NCBI RefSeq assembly: GCF_056746865.1
Contig: NZ_CM163382.1
Reading direction: 5' to 3' (one strand)
Length of the DNA: 64,000 nt
Part shown: piece after piece, positions 23,007 through 60,163 of the stretch
Numbering within the stretch: position 1 is the stretch's first letter
Layout: every line of letters starts with the position of its first letter
Position numbers and translations under genes: made by a program
The notes under the pieces: generated by a model
Database searches by the model: none
Told to the model about the DNA's origin: nothing
Seen by the model: only the letters and a program-made list of their open reading frames with translations

Positions 23007-23613
23007 AAACTTCTAATTTACCATCACGTAACAAGATGCCCATATCGCATTGTTGTCGTAGATTTTTCATATCATGTGAAACCATAATCAAACTAGCTGT
23101 TTCTCGCTTTTTGTTAAATACATCAATACATTTTTGTTTAAAACGTGCATCACCTACTGAGGTAATTTCATCGGTAAGATATATATCAAAATCAAAAGCC
23201 ATACTAACAGCAAAAGAAAATTTTGATTTCATGCCGCTAGAGTATGTTTTAATAGGCAACTCATAATGTTGTCCAATTTCAGAAAACTCTTTAACCCACT
23301 CTTCTACGGTGCTTGTATCGCGTACACCATGAATGCGGCAAACAAATCGCGTGTTTTCACGACCAGTCATACTACCTTGAAATCCCCCACCTAGTGCTAG
23401 AGGCCAAGATACTCGGCAGAGACGAGTTACTTTCCCCCTGTTAGGCGTATCCATCCCTCCTAACAAACGTAACAAAGTAGATTTTCCTGCTCCATTGATA
23501 CCTAGAATACCTATATTACGGTCCCTTGGTAGCTCAATATTTACATTCCTCAGGACATAATTTCGTCCAAATTTAGTCGGATAATATTTTGATACATTAT
23601 CAAGAATAATCAT
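22963..23613 (-). CDS. kpsT: capsule ABC transporter ATP-binding protein
   Basis: 216 aa, Walker A GINGAGKSTLL, ABC signature region. Adjacent to the ABC-2 permease. Confidence 0.85.
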   Translation of the reverse strand: MIILDNVSKYYPTKFGRNYVLRNVNIELPRDRNIGILGINGAGKSTLLRLLGGMDTPNRGKVTRLCRVSWPLALGGGFQGSMTGRENTRFVCRIHGVRDTSTVEEWVKEFSEIGQHYELPIKTYSSGMKSKFSFAVSMAFDFDIYLTDEITSVGDARFKQKCIDVFNKKRETASLIMVSHDMKNLRQQCDMGILLRDGKLEVFDNIDDAIKIYQSL

Positions 23614-23624
23614 TTTTCTTAACG

Positions 23625-24425
23625 CTAACTAGCAATCAATTGGCGATGCCGTAATCGGTAACAACTCATAGCAAAAGTGAGCAATAATAAGGTGACAACC
23701 GACAGATACGCCCAACTTACATCAGGACTACGATAACCAGATATCCATGCCCTTCGGATTAGTTCTACAGCATGCACAAGTGGATTCCATAAAAACCAAT
23801 GCTGATATTGAGGGGGAATAGTAGCAAGAGGAAACATAACACAAGAGATAAACATCAAAGGCATCATTAACAAGCTAAGAAATTTATCTGCCTCTTTCGC
23901 TAAGTTACAAATAACACAAAATACAATACCAAGAGAAAAAGAAAACAGCATCAGAAGAGAATAACCAAGGATCACTTGCAATGGATCCGCAGGTATTGCA
24001 TCAAAGCCAAACCACAATAATCCTAGTACTAGGATGATACCGACAATCATGCCCACCATTGTTTCTAGCATAAAACGTGCTATAAAAGTTGCAAAAGGAG
24101 TCACTTGTCTATAACAAAAAAGTCCCATATTAGCATTGACAGCAGATTTCAACTGAGTCACAACTTTATTGAAAAACATGAAAGGTAAATAACCAGCAGT
24201 AATAAAAACCTGGGCTGGGACACCACCAAAGCCACTTTGGCTTCTCATCCCAAATACTACACTGAACAGGCTAATCATTAATAATGGGTCAAGTAATGCC
24301 CAAGCATAACCTAGTCGGTAATTACCAAATCTTGTTTTTAGCTCACGAATTAATAAGCCAAATACTACATCACGTAATACTTGCAAAGAAGTGCGTGGAG
24401 TTTGACTAATAATGGGTTTGTCCAT
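23625..24425 (-). CDS. kpsM: capsule ABC transporter permease (ABC-2 family)
   Basis: 266 aa, six predicted TM helices, ABC-2 type. Immediately upstream of kpsT. Confidence 0.8.
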   Translation of the reverse strand: MDKPIISQTPRTSLQVLRDVVFGLLIRELKTRFGNYRLGYAWALLDPLLMISLFSVVFGMRSQSGFGGVPAQVFITAGYLPFMFFNKVVTQLKSAVNANMGLFCYRQVTPFATFIARFMLETMVGMIVGIILVLGLLWFGFDAIPADPLQVILGYSLLMLFSFSLGIVFCVICNLAKEADKFLSLLMMPLMFISCVMFPLATIPPQYQHWFLWNPLVHAVELIRRAWISGYRSPDVSWAYLSVVTLLLLTFAMSCYRLRHRQLIAS

Positions 24426-24491
24426 TAATACTTACCCAAATAATCGGCTCATTATAGCAACGAGCCTCCGATTAAAATTTAAAACACTCAA

Positions 24492-26237
24492 TCATTTAAT
24501 AGCAACGTTAGCAGCTACAGCGATTTGATAAATAATTTGTGTGATATCTTTAAATGATTGCATGGTTTTGCTATCAACCTGAGGTAGAACCAATATCTGA
24601 TCCCCCGGTTGTACTTTACCTTGCCCTTTAAATTCTACAAGACCATTTGCATGTACAATAGCAATTCGCTTGTCGTTAGCTCGCTCAGTAAAACCTCCGG
24701 CCCATGCAACATAATCATCCAAATTAGCATCGGCATTATATACTACTGCTTGTGGCATCAACACTTCACCACCCACTTGAATAAGATCAGTCTTATTTGG
24801 AATAACTATTTGATCGCCTTGTTCTAATTGGATATTGGCAATAACACCTTTATCTGCAACTACTACTTTACCAAGCGGTTGAACTTTACGAGCCTTTTCA
24901 ACAAACTGCATCACTAACTCTGCTTCTTTAGCACGTATATTCGCCTCACCATCAGATCGCGCGGGTGTGGTAAATACACTACGTTCCAAGCGGTTTAGAG
25001 ATTCATCCAGCATCTCTTTTTGTCTTGCAGCCACACTCTTTCGTATCAGATAAATTGATTGATAATCCGCAAGCTCTGGGTCAATAGGGATATAGTTCAA
25101 TAAATCATGCAATTTAGTTTGCTTACGAACCGTGAAATATGACGGTCCCATATAACTGCCTGATACTTGTATATCATATACTTGTGCATGCATGTCATCA
25201 TTAAAAAGTACTTTGTCACCGTCTTTAAGTTGAAGACGTGTAAAATCTTTATACGGCAAGTAGACGGAAAACGGGCCGCTTTCCCTGTCGCCAATCACAC
25301 CGACATGACTGACTTTTGCGAGAGGAAGTGCATAATTCACCAATTCAGAGCCTAATGCATTGCGCTGGGTAAGCTCAAATCGGAATGGGTTTCGAACCTT
25401 TCCCGCAACATTGATCATTGGACCTTGTTGCTCAACTAAAATCACATCTTGATCTTTTAATGCCAGCTTCGGGAGTTTCCCATACCGTATGAAATCATAA
25501 AGATCAATTTGCTGTATTACTCTATTTTGTCGTAACACCTTAATTTTTCGATAACTTCCACGGTCAGAATCTATTCCACCGGCACGTTTTAAAAAATACA
25601 ATATACTATCAGAAGATTGTCCTGCATACTGCCCAGGACGAATTACAGGCCCCGTAACGAATACACTTACAGGGGTTGCAGTCAAAAGATTTACGTAAGT
25701 ATTTACATTATTGGTAAATACATCACCGATCTTACTTGCCACCAACTGATTAACTTGGCTTGCAGGAACATTTTTTACATTTATTGGACCTACATCAGGT
25801 ATGAAAATATTTCCTTGATTATCTACCGTAACCACATTAGAGAAATTGACCGCTCCCCAAATCCAGATATTTAACTTATCCCCAGGAGCAATCAAATAAT
25901 TATCGCTTAAGCCGTCACTCCTTTCTGTTTCATAGCCTCCGGCAAATAAATTAGCACCATACGGAGGAGGTAAGCCTGCTTCAGATTGCGGCAGTAATTT
26001 TCGTACATCTGACTCTCCTGGAAGCAACATCCCATTACGATTCTGTTGTGTGAAGCTTCCTGTTGTGGAGGTTGTATTAGGCTGTCCAGTGATGTCTGCT
26101 AGCATTTTCCGAGACTCTCCTGTCGAGGCAGCAAGATCATAATCTAAATGTGAACCATTAGATTGATTTTGCTCTATTGCGGCGAATGCTGATGCAGAAA
26201 TAAGAAAGAGAAGAGTGCTAAGTTGCGAAATTTTCAT
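24492..26237 (-). CDS. kpsD: KpsD-like periplasmic/outer-membrane capsule export protein
   Basis: 581 aa with signal peptide (MKISQLSTLLFLISASAFA). Central region resembles KpsD (GDKLNIWIWGA...GNIFIPDVGPINV...VFVTGPVIRPGQY...RGSY). Confidence 0.75.
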   Translation of the reverse strand: MKISQLSTLLFLISASAFAAIEQNQSNGSHLDYDLAASTGESRKMLADITGQPNTTSTTGSFTQQNRNGMLLPGESDVRKLLPQSEAGLPPPYGANLFAGGYETERSDGLSDNYLIAPGDKLNIWIWGAVNFSNVVTVDNQGNIFIPDVGPINVKNVPASQVNQLVASKIGDVFTNNVNTYVNLLTATPVSVFVTGPVIRPGQYAGQSSDSILYFLKRAGGIDSDRGSYRKIKVLRQNRVIQQIDLYDFIRYGKLPKLALKDQDVILVEQQGPMINVAGKVRNPFRFELTQRNALGSELVNYALPLAKVSHVGVIGDRESGPFSVYLPYKDFTRLQLKDGDKVLFNDDMHAQVYDIQVSGSYMGPSYFTVRKQTKLHDLLNYIPIDPELADYQSIYLIRKSVAARQKEMLDESLNRLERSVFTTPARSDGEANIRAKEAELVMQFVEKARKVQPLGKVVVADKGVIANIQLEQGDQIVIPNKTDLIQVGGEVLMPQAVVYNADANLDDYVAWAGGFTERANDKRIAIVHANGLVEFKGQGKVQPGDQILVLPQVDSKTMQSFKDITQIIYQIAVAANVAIK

Positions 26238-26263
26238 TATTTTCTAACCGTCTACCTTCAACT

Positions 26264-26635
26264 TTATTCTTCAATAAGCAAAGTGCTAACTGATGTTTGT
26301 TCCAACTGAGGTACTTGATACCACTTGTTATTCTCTTTACATACAACACTTCGCTTTGAATAATTTTTATTCATCGCATAACTTAACTTTATGCATTGAG
26401 AACCTAAAGCCGATATATACCTTTCCTCAATAGTATAAATTACGCCATTTTTGTTGAATGTCGTGCCTTGATCTTGGTTATTTAATGGTGCCTGCAAATC
26501 TTCAGGAATAAGAGAATAAGAAGAATTAATCGCTGTTACCAATGGACGAGAGGCTTCAACTTGTTTTGGATCATGTGCGCAGGCCGTTATAAAAAAGATT
26601 AGTGAAAATAATAAAATACGATGTGCAAGGTGCAT
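26264..26635 (-). CDS. putative small lipoprotein
   Basis: 123 aa, signal peptide plus lipobox (FFITAC). Sits between the JUMPstart element and kpsD. No assignable family. Confidence 0.4.
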   Translation of the reverse strand: MHLAHRILLFSLIFFITACAHDPKQVEASRPLVTAINSSYSLIPEDLQAPLNNQDQGTTFNKNGVIYTIEERYISALGSQCIKLSYAMNKNYSKRSVVCKENNKWYQVPQLEQTSVSTLLIEE

Positions 26636-27564
26636 TTTAAAACGTTATCCAAAAGTTGATAGTATGTAAAACAATTACCTTCTATTATTGATACTCTGAC
26701 AGATATCAATAATAGCCCATAAATATAAGATATTTAAAATTATAACCACACAAATTAATCATAGATGTTGCTAGTATAAGATTGACTTTAGTCAACTGGT
26801 GTTTACATCATCTGTTTATAACTAATTACGAATATATCCTTTATCTTTTGGATATGTACTACATATGCAACACACATCCCTAAAAATATTATTTTTATGG
26901 CCCCGTATATTGCTATCTTTTTTTTATAAAATTTAATAATAACAACCATATGGAAGAGAAAATCCCTCTTATACATAAAGAGGGATCAATTAAATAAATT
27001 TGTTTTGTAATGACTCAGTAAGGCATAGACGTTTTCATAAATTCTTAAATTACTATCCCCAAAAATCTAAGTCCTGAAAAACTTTAACACTCTAATATTT
27101 TCATGAGCCGTTCAGCACACCCTCAACTTCGATAAAAAATGCTAACTAGTAAATAATTGTCGCAATAATAATAGTCGTACTTTATCAATAACAGATAAAC
27201 AAAAATAATAAAAAAGAGGGGAGATACACTTGCGATAGAATGGCGGCTTCTTGCCCCCCTTTGCCCGGTCCTGACTAGCATGGCTGGAGTCAGTGTCAGG
27301 CCACGACCATGCTCATCATGGAAGCAGCTTTTGTAGTACACTTCGCAGCTTATTTTCCTGGAACGAAATGTCTGGCATCGTGGTGCATAACATAACCCCC
27401 AATGCCCAGCAGATGCACAGAAGGTTCTAGAATCGCCCACTGATATCCCATACAAAATTTACCAAAACGTGTTCGTATTTCTCGTATAAATAATGTCTCT
27501 ATGGTGACGTTCTAGACTTCAAACCCACTTTTTGAATTTGATGATGTGCTCCTAATCTCTTCAG

Positions 27565-53502: not shown

Positions 53503-53752
53503 GAGTAGGCTTCGCTTTGTTGTGTTGTGTGGCAGCTGATTTTTGCGCGCTGCTTCTGTGAACAGTTATTAAGCGGGCTTTTCGTTTTCGTCTATCTCTT
53601 TAGCTACCGGTCAGACCATTTTTTTTCCAGCTCTGTGACCTTGTCTTGGTTAACTCAATGTTAAATTGATGTAACATAATCACTTACGTGATGTGCGTGT
53701 TTTGCGAGTTAAGAACAGAAAAATTGGTCCTACCTGTGCACGAGGTCCGGGA
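53503..53752. promoter_or_regulatory. divergent glcC / glcD promoter-operator region
   Basis: 250-bp intergenic region between divergent glcD (minus) and glcC (plus). Position only; no individual sites mapped. Confidence 0.5.
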
Positions 53753-54517
53753 ATGAAAGATGAACGTCGCCCTATTTGCGAAGTGGTTGCAGAGAGTATC
53801 GAACGGTTAATTATCGACGGCGTACTGAAGGTCGGTCAGCCGCTTCCCTCGGAACGTCGACTGTGTGAAAAGCTCGGCTTCTCACGCTCCGCACTGCGTG
53901 AAGGGCTGACCGTGCTGCGCGGGCGCGGGATTATTGAAACGGCGCAGGGTCGCGATTCTCGTGTCGCACGGCTTAATCGGGTGCAGGACACCAGCCCGCT
54001 AATTCATCTGTTCAGCACGCAGCCGCGAACGCTGTACGATCTGCTCGACGTTCGCGCATTACTGGAGGGCGAATCGGCAAGGCTGGCGGCAACGCTGGGA
54101 ACGCAGGCTGATTTTGTTGTGATAACTCGCTGTTATGAAAAAATGCTCGCCGCCAGTGAGAATAACAAAGAGATTTCGCTGATCGAACATGCGCAGTTGG
54201 ATCACGCTTTCCATCTCGCCATTTGTCAGGCTTCTCACAATCAGGTGCTGGTGTTTACGCTGCAATCATTGACCGATCTGATGTTTAATTCAGTGTTTGC
54301 CAGCGTAAATAATCTCTACCATCGACCACAGCAAAAAAAGCAGATCGATCGCCAGCATGCGCGGATCTACAACGCGGTGTTGCAGCGGCTGCCGCACGTC
54401 GCCCAGCGCGCAGCACGCGATCATGTGCGGACCGTGAAAAAGAATCTCCACGATATCGAGCTGGAAGGCCACCATTTGATTCGCTCGGCGGTGCCGCTGG
54501 AGATGAACCTGAGTTAG
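53753..54517 (+). CDS. glcC: GntR/FadR-family transcriptional activator of the glc operon
   Basis: 254 aa from the internal Met (MKDERRPICEVVAESIERLIIDG...), HTH GntR N-terminus and FCD domain. Divergent from glcD. Confidence 0.9.
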   Translation: MKDERRPICEVVAESIERLIIDGVLKVGQPLPSERRLCEKLGFSRSALREGLTVLRGRGIIETAQGRDSRVARLNRVQDTSPLIHLFSTQPRTLYDLLDVRALLEGESARLAATLGTQADFVVITRCYEKMLAASENNKEISLIEHAQLDHAFHLAICQASHNQVLVFTLQSLTDLMFNSVFASVNNLYHRPQQKKQIDRQHARIYNAVLQRLPHVAQRAARDHVRTVKKNLHDIELEGHHLIRSAVPLEMNLS

Positions 54518-54523
54518 CTGGTA

Positions 54524-55744
54524 TTAAATTTGCTTTTCATACAATCGGTAACGCTTGTACGGCTCCGCCCCAATGCGTTCCAGCATGTTATTCATGCCTG
54601 TATTGGTTTCGAGGATCCATGACATCTCCAGCGCATCGATCTTCCGGCGGGCAAACGGATCGCGTAAGGCTTCAATCAATAACAGCGCAATCACCGGGCC
54701 GATGCGGCTGAACTGATACTCGTCGCGCACGCCCATCAGCGGTACTCGCGCAGTTCGCACACCGCTGACTTTCAAACGCCACAGCAATTTTGCCCAGCCG
54801 AAGGGAAAGAGCGATCCGTTCAGATCGGCAATCGCCTCGTTGATGTTCGGCAAGCCGACAATAAACGCGCAGGGTGCAGAATCAATCTCAGCGATATAGA
54901 TCATATCGTCCGGCACCAGATATTTAAGTTGATCGCCCATGGTCGCGAATTCATGTTCGGTAAACGGCACAAATCCCCAGTTGTGCTGCCAGCCAGAGTT
55001 GAAAATCTCACGCAGGATCTGCATCTCTTCGGCAAACCGCTGACGATTGATGCAGCGAATGGTCACCTTTTTGCGCACCTGATCCATCAGTTTTTTTAGC
55101 GCCGGAGAGAAAGTGAGATCGGTTCGCTGCATCCACCACGCCAGTAAATCAATGCCTTTGTGATAACCCAGTTGTTCAATATGCGCGGCATACCACGGTT
55201 TGCCGTGTGGCATCATCGCACAGGGTGGTGTGTCAAAACCTTCAATCAGTAATCCGCTTTCCTGATTGATATTCAGGCTGAAAGGACCGCTGATCTTACT
55301 TGCACCTTGTGACTTCAACCACGCTTCCGCTGCGCCAAACAACGCGGCAAAAACCTGCGGATCATCAATGGCGTCAATCATGCCGAAATGACCGGTATCT
55401 TTGCCGTAACGCTCGCGGTGCAAGGTATCTATTTGCGCGGTAATACGCCCAACTATCTGCCCCGCTTTTTTTGCCACCCACGCCTGCCAGATGATATGGT
55501 CCGTCCCCGGATTTTTCGCAGACAAATGCTCGTTGCGTTCAATGAATAAAGGGGGTATCCAGTTTGGATCGTCGGGATAAAGTGATGACGGAAAAGCGAT
55601 AAATGCCTTAAGGTCATTTTTATTAATTACTTTTTCAATTTTAATCATCAGCAGATCGCATTCCATAGTTCTGTTCTGTGGGTAACAAATAATTAACGGT
55701 GACAAACAGGTTGCAACAGCAACGAACGGCACCTTAATAATCAA
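54524..55744 (-). CDS. yghO: YghO-like protein, possible acyl-CoA N-acyltransferase fold (uncertain)
   Basis: 406-aa track ORF; the true start is probably an internal Met (MECDLL... or MIKIEKV...). Position next to glcC matches E. coli yghO. The fold assignment is an inference. Confidence 0.5.
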   Translation of the reverse strand: MIIKVPFVAVATCLSPLIICYPQNRTMECDLLMIKIEKVINKNDLKAFIAFPSSLYPDDPNWIPPLFIERNEHLSAKNPGTDHIIWQAWVAKKAGQIVGRITAQIDTLHRERYGKDTGHFGMIDAIDDPQVFAALFGAAEAWLKSQGASKISGPFSLNINQESGLLIEGFDTPPCAMMPHGKPWYAAHIEQLGYHKGIDLLAWWMQRTDLTFSPALKKLMDQVRKKVTIRCINRQRFAEEMQILREIFNSGWQHNWGFVPFTEHEFATMGDQLKYLVPDDMIYIAEIDSAPCAFIVGLPNINEAIADLNGSLFPFGWAKLLWRLKVSGVRTARVPLMGVRDEYQFSRIGPVIALLLIEALRDPFARRKIDALEMSWILETNTGMNNMLERIGAEPYKRYRLYEKQI

Positions 55745-56033
55745 CCCAATGAATACAAACGACGAATAAATAGTATTTATTAATGATTACGATAAGGTCA
55801 GAGACTACACAGAAGCGCCACAATGCCTTTTGTCGATTTAAGGCGACCGGACAAGGCTTCTTCTTAATATATTCATAAATTAAATATCATTCACAATAAA
55901 AACAAAAAAACTCAAACTCATTATTTAAATCAATGTTCATTTTCACACTGATGAAAATACTATCTCATTTATCTTTTATGCCTATATAATCCACCGCATT
56001 ATTGTCATTTTATTTTGGATATCCAATTTTTTC
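55745..56033. promoter_or_regulatory. AT-rich divergent promoter region between yghO-like gene and the lipid operon
   Basis: 289-bp AT-rich intergenic region between divergently oriented genes. No individual promoter elements mapped. Confidence 0.3.
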
Positions 56034-57764
56034 GTGGTGTATATGTCTAATAAAATCTTTACGCATTCCCTACCTATGCGCTATGCCGATTTTCCAACGC
56101 TTGTTGATGCTTTGGACTACGCCGCTCTGAGTAGCGCCGGAATGAATTTTTATGACAGACGTTGCCAACTTGAAGATCAACTGGAATATCAGACGTTAAA
56201 AGCACGTGCCGAAGCTGGTGCGAAGCGGTTGTTATCGCTGAACCTGAAAAAAGGCGATCGCGTGGCACTGATTGCCGAAACAAGTAGCGAGTTCGTAGAG
56301 GCTTTTTTTGCCTGCCAGTATGCCGGCTTAGTCGCCGTCCCGTTGGCGATTCCAATGGGCGTTGGTCAGCGGGATTCCTGGAGCGCCAAATTGCAGGGTT
56401 TACTGGCAAGTTGCCAGCCCGCAGCCATTATCACTGGTGATGAGTGGTTGCCACTGGTCAATGCCGCGACGCATGACAACCCCGAATTACATGTTTTAAG
56501 CCACGCCTGGTTTAAGGCATTACCGGAAGCCGATGTTGCGCTCCAGCGTCCAGTTCCGAACGATATCGCCTACCTCCAGTACACCTCCGGCAGCACCCGT
56601 TTTCCCCGTGGCGTCATTATCACCCATCGCGAAGTGATGGCTAATCTACGTGCTATAAGCCACGACGGCATTAAATTACGCCCTGGCGACCGCTGCGTCT
56701 CCTGGCTGCCTTTCTACCATGATATGGGACTGGTCGGCTTTCTCCTGACCCCCGTCGCCACGCAGCTTTCAGTAGATTATTTGCGCACTCAGGATTTTGC
56801 CATGCGTCCTCTGCAATGGCTTAAATTGATCAGTAAAAATCGCGGCACCGTTTCCGTTGCGCCGCCGTTTGGCTATGAATTGTGCCAGCGCCGCGTGAAT
56901 GAAAAAGATCTCGCTGAACTGGATCTTTCCTGCTGGCGCGTCGCTGGTATTGGTGCAGAACCCATCTCCGCAGAACAACTCCATCAATTCGCTGAATGTT
57001 TCCGTCAGGTTAACTTTGACAATAAAACTTTCATGCCGTGCTACGGACTGGCAGAAAATGCGCTGGCTGTCAGCTTCTCTGATGAAGCCTCCGGGGTTGT
57101 GGTTAACGAAGTGGATCGCGACATCCTCGAATATCAGGGTAAAGCCGTCGCGCCGGGTGCAGAGACACGCGCCGTATCGACTTTCGTCAACTGCGGCAAA
57201 GCGTTGCCGGAACATGGTATTGAAATCCGCAATGAAGCAGGTATGCCGGTCGCGGAACGTGTGGTAGGCCATATTTGCATCTCCGGTCCCAGTCTGATGA
57301 GCGGTTACTTTGGCGACCAGGTTTCGCAAGACGAGATTGCCGCGACGGGCTGGTTAGACACCGGCGACCTCGGTTATCTGCTGGACGGTTATCTGTATGT
57401 CACCGGACGCATTAAAGATCTGATTATTATTCGTGGCCGTAATATCTGGCCGCAGGATATTGAATATATAGCGGAACAGGAACCGGAAATTCATTCTGGC
57501 GATGCGATTGCTTTTGTTACCGCCCAGGAAAAAATCATTTTGCAGATCCAGTGTCGGATCAGCGACGAAGAACGTCGCGGGCAGCTTATCCACGCGCTGG
57601 CGGCACGGATCCAAAGCGAATTTGGCGTGACCGCGGCTATCGATCTGTTGCCGCCCCACAGTATTCCCCGAACGTCCTCCGGCAAGCCTGCCCGTGCGGA
57701 AGCGAAAAAACGTTATCAGAAGGCTTATGCTGCCAGTCTTAATGTGCAGGAATCCCTGGCATGA
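56034..57764 (+). CDS. fatty acyl-AMP ligase / acyl-ACP synthetase (ANL superfamily)
   Basis: 576 aa, AMP-binding motif YLQYTSGSTRFPRGV, then YGLAEN and C-terminal GRIKDLIIIRGRNIWPQDIE typical of FAAL-type adenylating enzymes. Confidence 0.8.
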   Translation: MVYMSNKIFTHSLPMRYADFPTLVDALDYAALSSAGMNFYDRRCQLEDQLEYQTLKARAEAGAKRLLSLNLKKGDRVALIAETSSEFVEAFFACQYAGLVAVPLAIPMGVGQRDSWSAKLQGLLASCQPAAIITGDEWLPLVNAATHDNPELHVLSHAWFKALPEADVALQRPVPNDIAYLQYTSGSTRFPRGVIITHREVMANLRAISHDGIKLRPGDRCVSWLPFYHDMGLVGFLLTPVATQLSVDYLRTQDFAMRPLQWLKLISKNRGTVSVAPPFGYELCQRRVNEKDLAELDLSCWRVAGIGAEPISAEQLHQFAECFRQVNFDNKTFMPCYGLAENALAVSFSDEASGVVVNEVDRDILEYQGKAVAPGAETRAVSTFVNCGKALPEHGIEIRNEAGMPVAERVVGHICISGPSLMSGYFGDQVSQDEIAATGWLDTGDLGYLLDGYLYVTGRIKDLIIIRGRNIWPQDIEYIAEQEPEIHSGDAIAFVTAQEKIILQIQCRISDEERRGQLIHALAARIQSEFGVTAAIDLLPPHSIPRTSSGKPARAEAKKRYQKAYAASLNVQESLA

Positions 57765-58675
57765 ATCAAACTGTCGCGGTGACGGGCGCTACCGGGTTTA
57801 TCGGTAAATATATTATCGATAACCTGCTCGCCCGCGGCTTTCACGTTCGCGCATTGACGCGTACTGCCCGCGCTCACGTCAATGATAATCTCACCTGGGT
57901 GCGCGGTTCGCTGGAAGATACTCATTCACTTAGCGAGCTGGTTGCCGGAGCCAGCGTAGTGGTCCATTGCGCCGGGCAAGTGCGCGGGCACAAAGAAGAG
58001 ATTTTCACCCGCTGTAACGTTGACGGCAGCCTGCGCCTGATGCAAGCAGCAAAAGAGAGCGGCTTTTGCCAACGTTTTCTGTTTATCTCTTCGCTGGCGG
58101 CGCGCCATCCCGAGCTCTCCTGGTATGCAAAATCCAAATACGTCGCCGAGCAACGACTGGCAGCAATGGCGGACGAAATTACGCTGGGCGTTTTTCGCCC
58201 GACAGCCGTGTATGGTCCCGGCGATAAAGAGTTAAAACCGCTGTTTGACTGGATGCTGCGCGGCCTGCTGCCACGACTTGGTGCGCCAGATACACAGCTC
58301 TCTTTTCTGCACGTCACCGATTTCGCGCAAGCAGTGGGTCAGTGGTTAAGCGCCGAAACTATACAGACGCAAACCTATGAATTATGCGATGGCGTCGTCG
58401 GCGGCTATGACTGGCAACGCGTACAGCAACTTGCCGCCGACGCCCGTTGCGGTTCCGTGCGAATGGTTGGCATTCCTCTGCCGGTACTCACCGGCCTTGC
58501 GGATATCAGTACCGCGTTGAGTCGCCTGGCAGGTAAAGAACCTATGCTGACCCGCTCGAAAATTCGTGAATTAACCCACGCCGACTGGTCGGCAAGTAAT
58601 AACCGTATTTCTGAAGATATTAATTGGTTTCCCGGGATTAGCCTGGAACACGCATTACGCAACGGGCTATTTTGA
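57761..58675 (+). CDS. NAD(P)-dependent epimerase/dehydratase-family (extended SDR) reductase
   Basis: 304 aa, VAVTGATGFIGKYI Rossmann motif and YAKSK catalytic YxxxK. Start overlaps the upstream stop (ATGA). Confidence 0.75.
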   Translation: MNQTVAVTGATGFIGKYIIDNLLARGFHVRALTRTARAHVNDNLTWVRGSLEDTHSLSELVAGASVVVHCAGQVRGHKEEIFTRCNVDGSLRLMQAAKESGFCQRFLFISSLAARHPELSWYAKSKYVAEQRLAAMADEITLGVFRPTAVYGPGDKELKPLFDWMLRGLLPRLGAPDTQLSFLHVTDFAQAVGQWLSAETIQTQTYELCDGVVGGYDWQRVQQLAADARCGSVRMVGIPLPVLTGLADISTALSRLAGKEPMLTRSKIRELTHADWSASNNRISEDINWFPGISLEHALRNGLF

Positions 58676-58706
58676 TTGTCTTGTTTAAAGGTGTGTTAAC
58701 GTTTCT

Positions 58707-58955
58707 ATGGTAAATCGTGAAATAGTAATGGATTACATCCTTTCCTGTTTACAGGATTTGGTCGAAAACGGTGTGGAAATTAAGCCCGACAGCGATCTCG
58801 TCAACGATCTTGGCCTGGAGTCGATCAAAGTGATGGATCTCTTAATGATGCTGGAAGACAGATTCGATATTTCCATTCCTATTAATATTCTGCTGGATGT
58901 CAAAACCCCTGCGCAATTAATGGAAACTCTACTTCCATGGCTGGAGAATAAATAA
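58707..58955 (+). CDS. acyl carrier protein
   Basis: 82 aa (true start perhaps an internal Met), DLGLESIKVMDL helix-II motif with a candidate phosphopantetheine serine. Confidence 0.65.
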   Translation: MVNREIVMDYILSCLQDLVENGVEIKPDSDLVNDLGLESIKVMDLLMMLEDRFDISIPINILLDVKTPAQLMETLLPWLENK

Positions 58956-60127
58956 TGGGGCTATACGATAAATATGCGCGCCTTGCTGGCGAGCGACTGC
59001 AATTTAGTGACAACGGGTTAACACCGTTTGGCACCTGTATTGATGAAGTGTATTCCGCCACCGAAGGCCGGATCGGCAATAAAAAAGTGATTCTGGCCGG
59101 GACCAATAATTATCTCGGTTTAACCTTTAATCATGATGCCATCAGCGAAGGTCAGGCCGCGTTAGCGGCCCAAGGTACCGGCACCACCGGTTCTCGTATG
59201 GCAAACGGCAGTTATGCGCCGCACCTGGCGTTAGAGAAAGAGATTGCCGAGTTTTTCAATCGCCCTACCGCTATCGTTTTTTCAACCGGTTATACCGCTA
59301 ATTTAGGCGTCATCAGCGCACTTGCCGACCATAACGCCGTGGTGTTACTGGATGCCGACAGCCACGCCAGTATTTATGACGCCTGTTCTCTCGGTGGCGC
59401 GGAAATTATTCGTTTCCGCCATAACGATGCTAAAGATCTGGAACGGCGCATGGTTCGCCTCGGTGAACGGGCGAAAGAGGCGATTATCATCGTTGAGGGT
59501 ATCTACAGCATGCTCGGTGACGTTGCGCCGTTAGCGGAAATTGTTGATATCAAACGTCGTCTCGGTGGTTATTTGATTGTCGATGAAGCGCATTCGTTTG
59601 GCGTGTTAGGCGCAACGGGGCGCGGACTGGCTGAAGCTGTCGGCGTTGAAGATGATGTGGATATTATCGTTGGCACCTTCAGTAAAAGTCTGGCCTCGAT
59701 TGGCGGTTTTGCTGTCGGTTCGGAAGCGATGGAAGTGCTGCGCTACGGCAGCCGCCCGTATATTTTTACCGCCTCTCCTTCTCCGTCCTGCATTGCGACC
59801 GTGCGCTCGTCGTTAAGAACTATTGCCACACAACCAGAGCTGCGGCAAAAGCTGATGGATAATGCCAACCATCTGTATGACGGTCTGCAAAAACTGGGTT
59901 ATGAGTTAAGTTCACATATTAGCCCGGTAGTGCCGGTAATAATCGGTTCGAAAGAGGACGGTTTACGCATCTGGCGCGAGCTTATTTCGCTGGGCGTTTA
60001 TGTGAATCTTATCCTGCCACCTGCCGCGCCTGCAGGCATCACGCTGCTGCGCTGTAGCGTAAACGCTGCTCACAGTCGTGAGCAAATCGATGCCATCATT
60101 CAGGCATTTGCTACTCTGAAGCAGTAA
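58955..60127 (+). CDS. alpha-oxoamine synthase family PLP enzyme (BioF/Kbl/serine palmitoyltransferase-like)
   Basis: 390 aa, GTTGSRMANG, DEAHSFG and the PLP-lysine motif GTFSKSL. Start overlaps the ACP stop (TAATG). Confidence 0.85.
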   Translation: MGLYDKYARLAGERLQFSDNGLTPFGTCIDEVYSATEGRIGNKKVILAGTNNYLGLTFNHDAISEGQAALAAQGTGTTGSRMANGSYAPHLALEKEIAEFFNRPTAIVFSTGYTANLGVISALADHNAVVLLDADSHASIYDACSLGGAEIIRFRHNDAKDLERRMVRLGERAKEAIIIVEGIYSMLGDVAPLAEIVDIKRRLGGYLIVDEAHSFGVLGATGRGLAEAVGVEDDVDIIVGTFSKSLASIGGFAVGSEAMEVLRYGSRPYIFTASPSPSCIATVRSSLRTIATQPELRQKLMDNANHLYDGLQKLGYELSSHISPVVPVIIGSKEDGLRIWRELISLGVYVNLILPPAAPAGITLLRCSVNAAHSREQIDAIIQAFATLKQ

Positions 60128-60133
60128 TGTGAG

Positions 60134-60163
60134 CCCGCCGTGGTGTTGCGCCACGGCGGGTTT
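60134..60163. terminator. hairpin terminator between convergent operons
   Basis: Perfect inverted repeat cccgccgtgg / ccacggcggg with a 7-nt loop, 6 nt after the AOS stop and abutting the stop of the convergent permease gene, followed by TTT. Confidence 0.55.

Follow-up and report, generated by a model that had tools for sequence, protein, structure and literature searches.

We examined yghO, a minus-strand gene in a 64,000-nucleotide window of the Escherichia coli chromosome (contig NZ_CM163382.1), as a candidate ceramide synthase of the sphingoid-base locus beside it. The 6.6-kb stretch from 53600 to 60200 of the window is 100% identical to many strains, and 4070 of 5426 complete E. coli genomes carry at least 80% of it. 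The order of genes is glcD, glcC, yghO on the minus strand, an AT-rich gap, four plus-strand genes, the LptG and LptF paralogues on the minus strand, a YtfJ-family gene, a gene for a 274-residue protein of unknown type, and yghQ. The features of the locus are as follows.

54524-55648, minus strand: yghO, predicted bCerS-type ceramide synthase of 374 amino acids with a tandem-GNAT fold (RefSeq start 55666; longest open reading frame to 55744).
55649-56033, no strand: AT-rich divergent intergenic region of 385 bp, 32.5% GC, defined by composition.
56034-57764, plus strand: aasR, fatty acyl-AMP ligase, a specialised acyl-carrier-protein (acyl-ACP) synthetase (NF006624, 878 bits; PF00501).
57761-58675, plus strand: NAD-dependent epimerase/dehydratase-family (SDR-type) reductase, homologue of epi/CerR, the keto-sphinganine or oxidised-ceramide reductase (PF01370, 5e-23).
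58707-58955, plus strand: acpR, specialised acyl carrier protein (PF00550, 1e-13; WP_000248097.1, same accession in BL21).
58955-60127, plus strand: spt, alpha-oxoamine synthase scoring as serine palmitoyltransferase (NF047599, 599 bits against a cut-off of 500; WP_000524970.1, same accession in BL21).
60162-61241, minus strand: LptG paralogue (lptG2-like), candidate sphingolipid exporter subunit (TIGR04408, 309 bits; RefSeq coordinates).
61238-62308, minus strand: LptF paralogue (lptF2-like; TIGR04407, 318 bits).
62339-62902, minus strand: YtfJ_HI0045-family protein with a signal-peptide-like N-terminus, between the LptF paralogue and a CHAD-like gene (PF09695, 200 bits).
63735-64000, minus strand: yghQ, MOP-type flippase (Polysacc_synt); the region, with yghR, yghS and yghT, continues in locus L086 at 23494-27258.

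The original prediction had described yghO as a minus-strand open reading frame of 406 codons with a TTG start (54524-55744), and these boundaries were exact. Inside this frame lies a conserved ATG at 55648, which yields a protein of 374 residues beginning MIKIEKV; RefSeq begins at another ATG, at 55666 (380 residues). Nearly all homologues are 374 residues long and align from residue 1, covering 100% of the 374-residue form. The ATG at 55648 is therefore probably the true start, as judged from the aligned sequences. Nor is YghO a chance reading frame, as it has 7346 matches among database proteins at E ≤ 1e-3. At its other end, yghO converges on glcC, the two stop codons lying 6 bp apart (54517-54524) with no terminator in between; the pair is listed as an "excludon", a case of overlapping convergent transcription (PMC12288877).

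Pfam and NCBIfam matches agreed with the prediction of a plus-strand operon of four genes encoding a ligase, an SDR, a carrier protein and an alpha-oxoamine synthase. RefSeq starts aasR at 56076. Pseudocitrobacter and Hafnia have an ATG where E. coli has the GTG at 56034, and in the protein that starts there the NCBIfam ligase model matches from residue 9 onward; for these reasons, 56034 is the likelier start.

Homologues of YghO were gathered in a full scan of 1.84 billion representatives, which returned 6480 clusters (50% identity) at E ≤ 1e-3; 120 homologues were aligned for structure prediction. The predicted structure was of high confidence, with a mean predicted local distance difference test (pLDDT) score of 97.2, a predicted template-modelling score of 0.93 and 373 of 374 residues above a pLDDT of 90. 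It consists of two GNAT domains in tandem that span the entire 374-residue chain, and the model shows the GNAT alpha/beta fold. Its top structural matches were all acyltransferases, and Foldseek was concordant. The two-lobed acyl-coenzyme A (acyl-CoA) N-acyltransferase fold proposed from the sequence was thus borne out by structure prediction and fold search; what emerged was a GNAT fold, and not the DNA-binding regulator or the fold unrelated to acyltransferases that the original prediction had named as outcomes contrary to it.

At the level of sequence, this relationship is visible mainly in the wider family. A phmmer search of YghO against PDB sequences gave chance matches only, and the GNAT model PF00583 was matched at E ≤ 1 by 101 of the 120 relatives, with a best value of 4.8e-12 and several scores above the 20.7-bit cut-off. 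Near the C-terminus, the family profile segment lGVrkeYrksrlgaglaall aligns to GNAT motif A, the beta4-alpha3 cofactor-binding loop, of 3tt2, and also to 3f8k and 2pdo; the alignment is weak (E-value 0.0012). With its putative thioester-cofactor motif, the C-terminal GNAT lobe is probably the catalytic lobe. Of the 58 alignment columns with 80% conservation or more in the family, YghO retains 56, including the invariant P122 and N349, and the E. coli gene therefore looks intact rather than decayed. Both the predicted fold and this conservation of residues come from the present analysis. Searches begun from distant homologues with an amino-acid composition of the GC-rich type matched Rhodobacterales-type and largely metagenome proteins, not Caulobacter.

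The closest solved relatives in architecture are tandem-GNAT acetyltransferases, namely MAB_4324 (7q3a), GlmA (5kf1), the clavulanate protein ORF14 (2wpw) and the mycothiol synthase MshD (1ozp), which are 13-14% identical to YghO and acetylate sugars or small amines from acetyl-CoA. YghO exceeds these enzymes in length by ~50 residues, and its motif A contains four inserted residues. N-myristoyltransferase (2p6e), at 11% identity, is a eukaryotic enzyme that acts on the N-terminal glycine of proteins. Eukaryotic CerS/Lag1 enzymes, of the TLC-domain type, carry out the same overall reaction that is expected of YghO, the N-acylation of a sphingoid base. The relationship between bacterial and eukaryotic ceramide synthesis is reportedly convergent, as the title of Stankeviciute et al. 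2022 is said to state. The eukaryotic enzymes are integral membrane proteins (PMC11087976), whereas YghO is modelled as a soluble alpha/beta fold; the two architectures are unrelated.

We assessed gene linkage in a sample of one genome per species, comprising 80 loci with a YghO homologue (47-96% identity) found with a profile built from 14 sequences; the 10-kb flanks were searched with the proteins of the window. At 76 of these loci, spt, aasR, the reductase gene or LptF/G paralogues lay within 10 kb of the homologue, and three of the four loci without cluster genes were contigs of 2-9 kb. The divergent yghO/aasR pair was present in 46/80 loci, including those of Enterobacterales, Pseudomonas, Azotobacter, Salinicola, Nitrococcus and assorted metagenome-assembled genomes, and an LptF- or LptG-type paralogue lay within 10 kb in 50/80. 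The identity to single homologues in Pseudomonas, Azotobacter, Nitrosomonas and others was 47-84% over residues 2-374; in Nitrosomonas the homologue adjoins lptF2/lptG2 rather than aasR, and the carriers include N. eutropha, a species listed in PMC9386255. Linkage of yghO to the sphingoid-base operon is therefore conserved across Gamma- and Betaproteobacteria and beyond, an observation made here that provides strong independent evidence that YghO works with the sphingoid-base genes. For three distant representatives, the gene context was uninformative, their contigs being 2-3 kb long. An NTP_transf_3 gene comes after one distant homologue (P0128), much as CC_1153 comes after CC_1154 in Caulobacter.

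The assignment of yghO as a ceramide synthase gene is not new; it has been in print since 2022, from the Geiger laboratory. Padilla-Gómez et al. described the same cluster in BL21(DE3), with ECD_02851 as aasR, ECD_02852 as epi, ECD_02853 as acpR and ECD_02854 as spt, and their Fig. 9 and Table S2 list "aca: CC_1154, yghO ECD_02850" as an acyl-CoA N-acyltransferase (PMC9386255). It is this label that ties the locus tag ECD_02850 to yghO. The published BLAST comparison of ECD_02850 with CC_1154 gave an E-value of 1e-107 and 44% identity at 98% coverage (PMC9386255). The YghO of BL21(DE3) is WP_001300526.1; strain 7/2 has the same accession, and its DNA is 100% identical to the window.

The same study provides biochemistry for the neighbouring genes: E. 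coli AasR loads E. coli AcpR, and only that carrier, and E. coli Spt prefers acyl-AcpR (PMC9386255). When 3-oxo-sphinganine was made in BL21(DE3), spots appeared on thin-layer chromatography that migrated like sphinganine and ceramide, "possibly by intrinsic enzymes", and ECD_02850 was suggested as the N-acyltransferase (PMC9386255). These activities and spots, like the orthology to bCerS, thus come from the literature. What our analysis contributes is confirmation, through the fold and the cross-species linkage of genes, and not discovery.

CC_1154 is the Caulobacter ceramide synthase bCerS (CCNA_01212, UniProt A0A0H3C8X0), which N-acylates 3-oxo-sphinganine or sphinganine and is genetically required for ceramide synthesis. 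Caulobacter crescentus has the same set of genes as the E. coli locus (aasR, cerR, acpR, spt, lptF2/G2 and a MOP-type flippase); E. coli yghO is directly divergent from aasR, whereas the Caulobacter gene lies ~eight genes away, beside lptG2. Transmembrane segments are absent from bCerS, a protein described as cytoplasmic and peripheral to the membrane (PMC11087976). According to the Caulobacter model, acylation of 3-ketosphinganine by the enzyme precedes reduction (PMC11087976), so that YghO may act on the keto base and not on its reduced form; the order of the two steps is disputed between two laboratories. A 2026 preprint from the Klein laboratory draws sphingolipid operons of E. coli UTI89 beside those of Caulobacter and reports that sphingolipid transport in Caulobacter depends on the LptF2/G2 paralogues. 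The E. coli permeases at 60162-62308 correspond to these LptF2/LptG2 proteins. This pair lies directly downstream of spt, and RefSeq labels its members simply "lptG" and "lptF". E. coli yghQ encodes a MOP-type flippase, like CC_1166 of the Caulobacter sphingolipid locus.

Taken together, these lines of evidence make it very probable that YghO is the E. coli orthologue of bCerS and the ceramide synthase of this sphingoid-base locus. The proposal that it N-acylates a sphingoid-like base to give a ceramide-like lipid is supported by the fold, the conserved residues, the linkage in 76/80 loci and the published orthology. The original prediction had called the enzyme analogous to bacterial ceramide synthases; the relation to those enzymes stands, but "analogous" understates it, as YghO is the published orthologue of bCerS/CC_1154 (PMC9386255). 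In the pathway we propose, AasR would load a fatty acid onto the dedicated carrier AcpR, and Spt would condense acyl-AcpR with serine to form 3-ketosphinganine. YghO, as a soluble or peripheral cytoplasmic tandem-GNAT enzyme, would then transfer a long-chain acyl group from an acyl thioester to the amino group of the base. From bCerS we infer acyl-CoA as the likely donor and 3-ketosphinganine as the likely acceptor, which would place acylation before reduction, with the reduced base a further possible acceptor. The epimerase-family reductase would reduce the 3-keto group, and outward transport of the lipid would presumably fall to the LptF/G paralogues and the YghQ flippase.

YghO could belong to this pathway and yet differ in its chemistry, drawing on acyl-AcpR or a housekeeping acyl-ACP as donor, or acylating only the reduced base, in the order seen in eukaryotes. 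The operon does possess its own carrier protein, with a ligase that loads only that carrier, the order of steps is in dispute, and bCerS itself takes the base in either form, keto or reduced. On the other side, CoA thioesters are what GNAT motif A and related tandem GNATs bind, and we consider such a variant unlikely. A GNAT that acetylates some unrelated substrate, be it an amino sugar (the GlmA type), an aminoglycoside (the Eis type) or protein lysines, and that sits beside the lipid operon only incidentally, is less probable still. The closest solved structures are indeed acetyl-CoA-using enzymes of such kinds, and K-12 yghO was among the candidates in a lysine-acetylation screen (PMC6199490). 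The identity to those structures is only 11-17%, however, the linkage to spt, aasR, the reductase gene and lptF2/G2 holds at 76/80 loci down to 47% identity, and the Caulobacter orthologue is needed genetically for ceramide synthesis. Finally, the notion that YghO binds DNA and regulates transcription of the neighbouring operon, which draws on the MG1655 record of b2981 ("putative DNA-binding transcriptional regulator YghO"), on the entry "DNA-binding protein" for some homologues in databases and on a divergent placement typical of regulators, has next to no chance of being right and is rejected as contradicted by the predicted GNAT fold: two lobes with pLDDT above 90 account for the whole chain, no helix-turn-helix or other DNA-binding domain was found in the model, Pfam or the structural matches, and the top structural matches are without exception acyltransferases.

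Several observations weigh against the assignment of YghO as a ceramide synthase. The E. coli protein itself has no Pfam match even at E ≤ 1 and reaches no NCBIfam threshold, and its motif A departs from that of classical GNATs by the four-residue insertion. The pairwise comparison of YghO with CC_1154 rests on the published table (PMC9386255). No reported enzyme assay or knockout of E. coli yghO was found in the literature searched. Shimwellia pseudoproteus has two homologues, of which one (L005, 84% identity) lies in a full cluster and the other (L018, 75%) has no cluster genes within 10 kb; this lone second copy indicates that not every member of the family need be a ceramide synthase. In addition, BL21 with empty vectors showed no sphingolipid spots (PMC9386255), and the native locus may therefore be silent or weakly expressed in the laboratory.

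The region between yghO and aasR presumably holds the promoters of both yghO and the operon. The 289-bp AT-rich divergent gap of the original prediction was recovered at 55745-56033, with 29.4% GC against ~50% in yghO and 52% in the operon; when counted from the conserved ATG at 55648, the gap is 385 bp long with 32.5% GC. Equivalent gaps in 17 Enterobacterales loci are likewise AT-rich (27-42% GC) and 320-990 bp long. A promoter scan of the intergenic region gave one weak sigma-70-like match, against 3.2 expected from shuffles, so that nothing stood above chance, and an Rfam search of the region gave no match. Comparison of the intergenic regions from six genera revealed no common motif beyond the aasR start; the sequence itself is not conserved. 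Co-regulation of yghO with the operon is an inference, and none of these searches gave a sign of it.

Downstream of the core genes, the YtfJ_HI0045-family gene co-occurs with the cluster in 14 loci. The genes yghR, yghS and yghT encode weakly thymidylate-kinase-like P-loop proteins, which may modify the lipid head group.

The K-12 strain has retained only part of this locus. K-12 YghO (b2981) is 99% identical to the window protein over 371 residues, with its N-terminus replaced. In MG1655 (3129043-3132408), an IS5 element replaces the first ~eight codons of yghO and its promoter side, and the segment that would run from aasR into the 5' part of yghQ is absent. K-12 yghO is therefore an orphaned remnant, and the K-12 reference lacks the pathway. 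The loss of the operon from K-12, together with the label of DNA-binding regulator, is probably why the locus is little known. That annotation could now be corrected, as the fold gives it no support.

Accounts of E. coli usually credit it with three main membrane lipids and with no sphingolipids (PMC10191378). We raise one broader possibility tentatively, with the chances somewhat against it: most E. coli strains (~75% of complete genomes, including BL21 and UTI89 but not K-12) may be able to make a hitherto undetected outer-membrane sphingolipid, for which YghO would supply the ceramide, while the AT-rich control region would keep the locus silent in laboratory culture and the CHAD-like, YtfJ-family and YghR/YghS/YghT proteins might provide a new head group. 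Three quarters of complete E. coli genomes carry an intact-looking set of genes for sphingolipid synthesis and export, and YghO is the step that would convert the long-chain base to ceramide.
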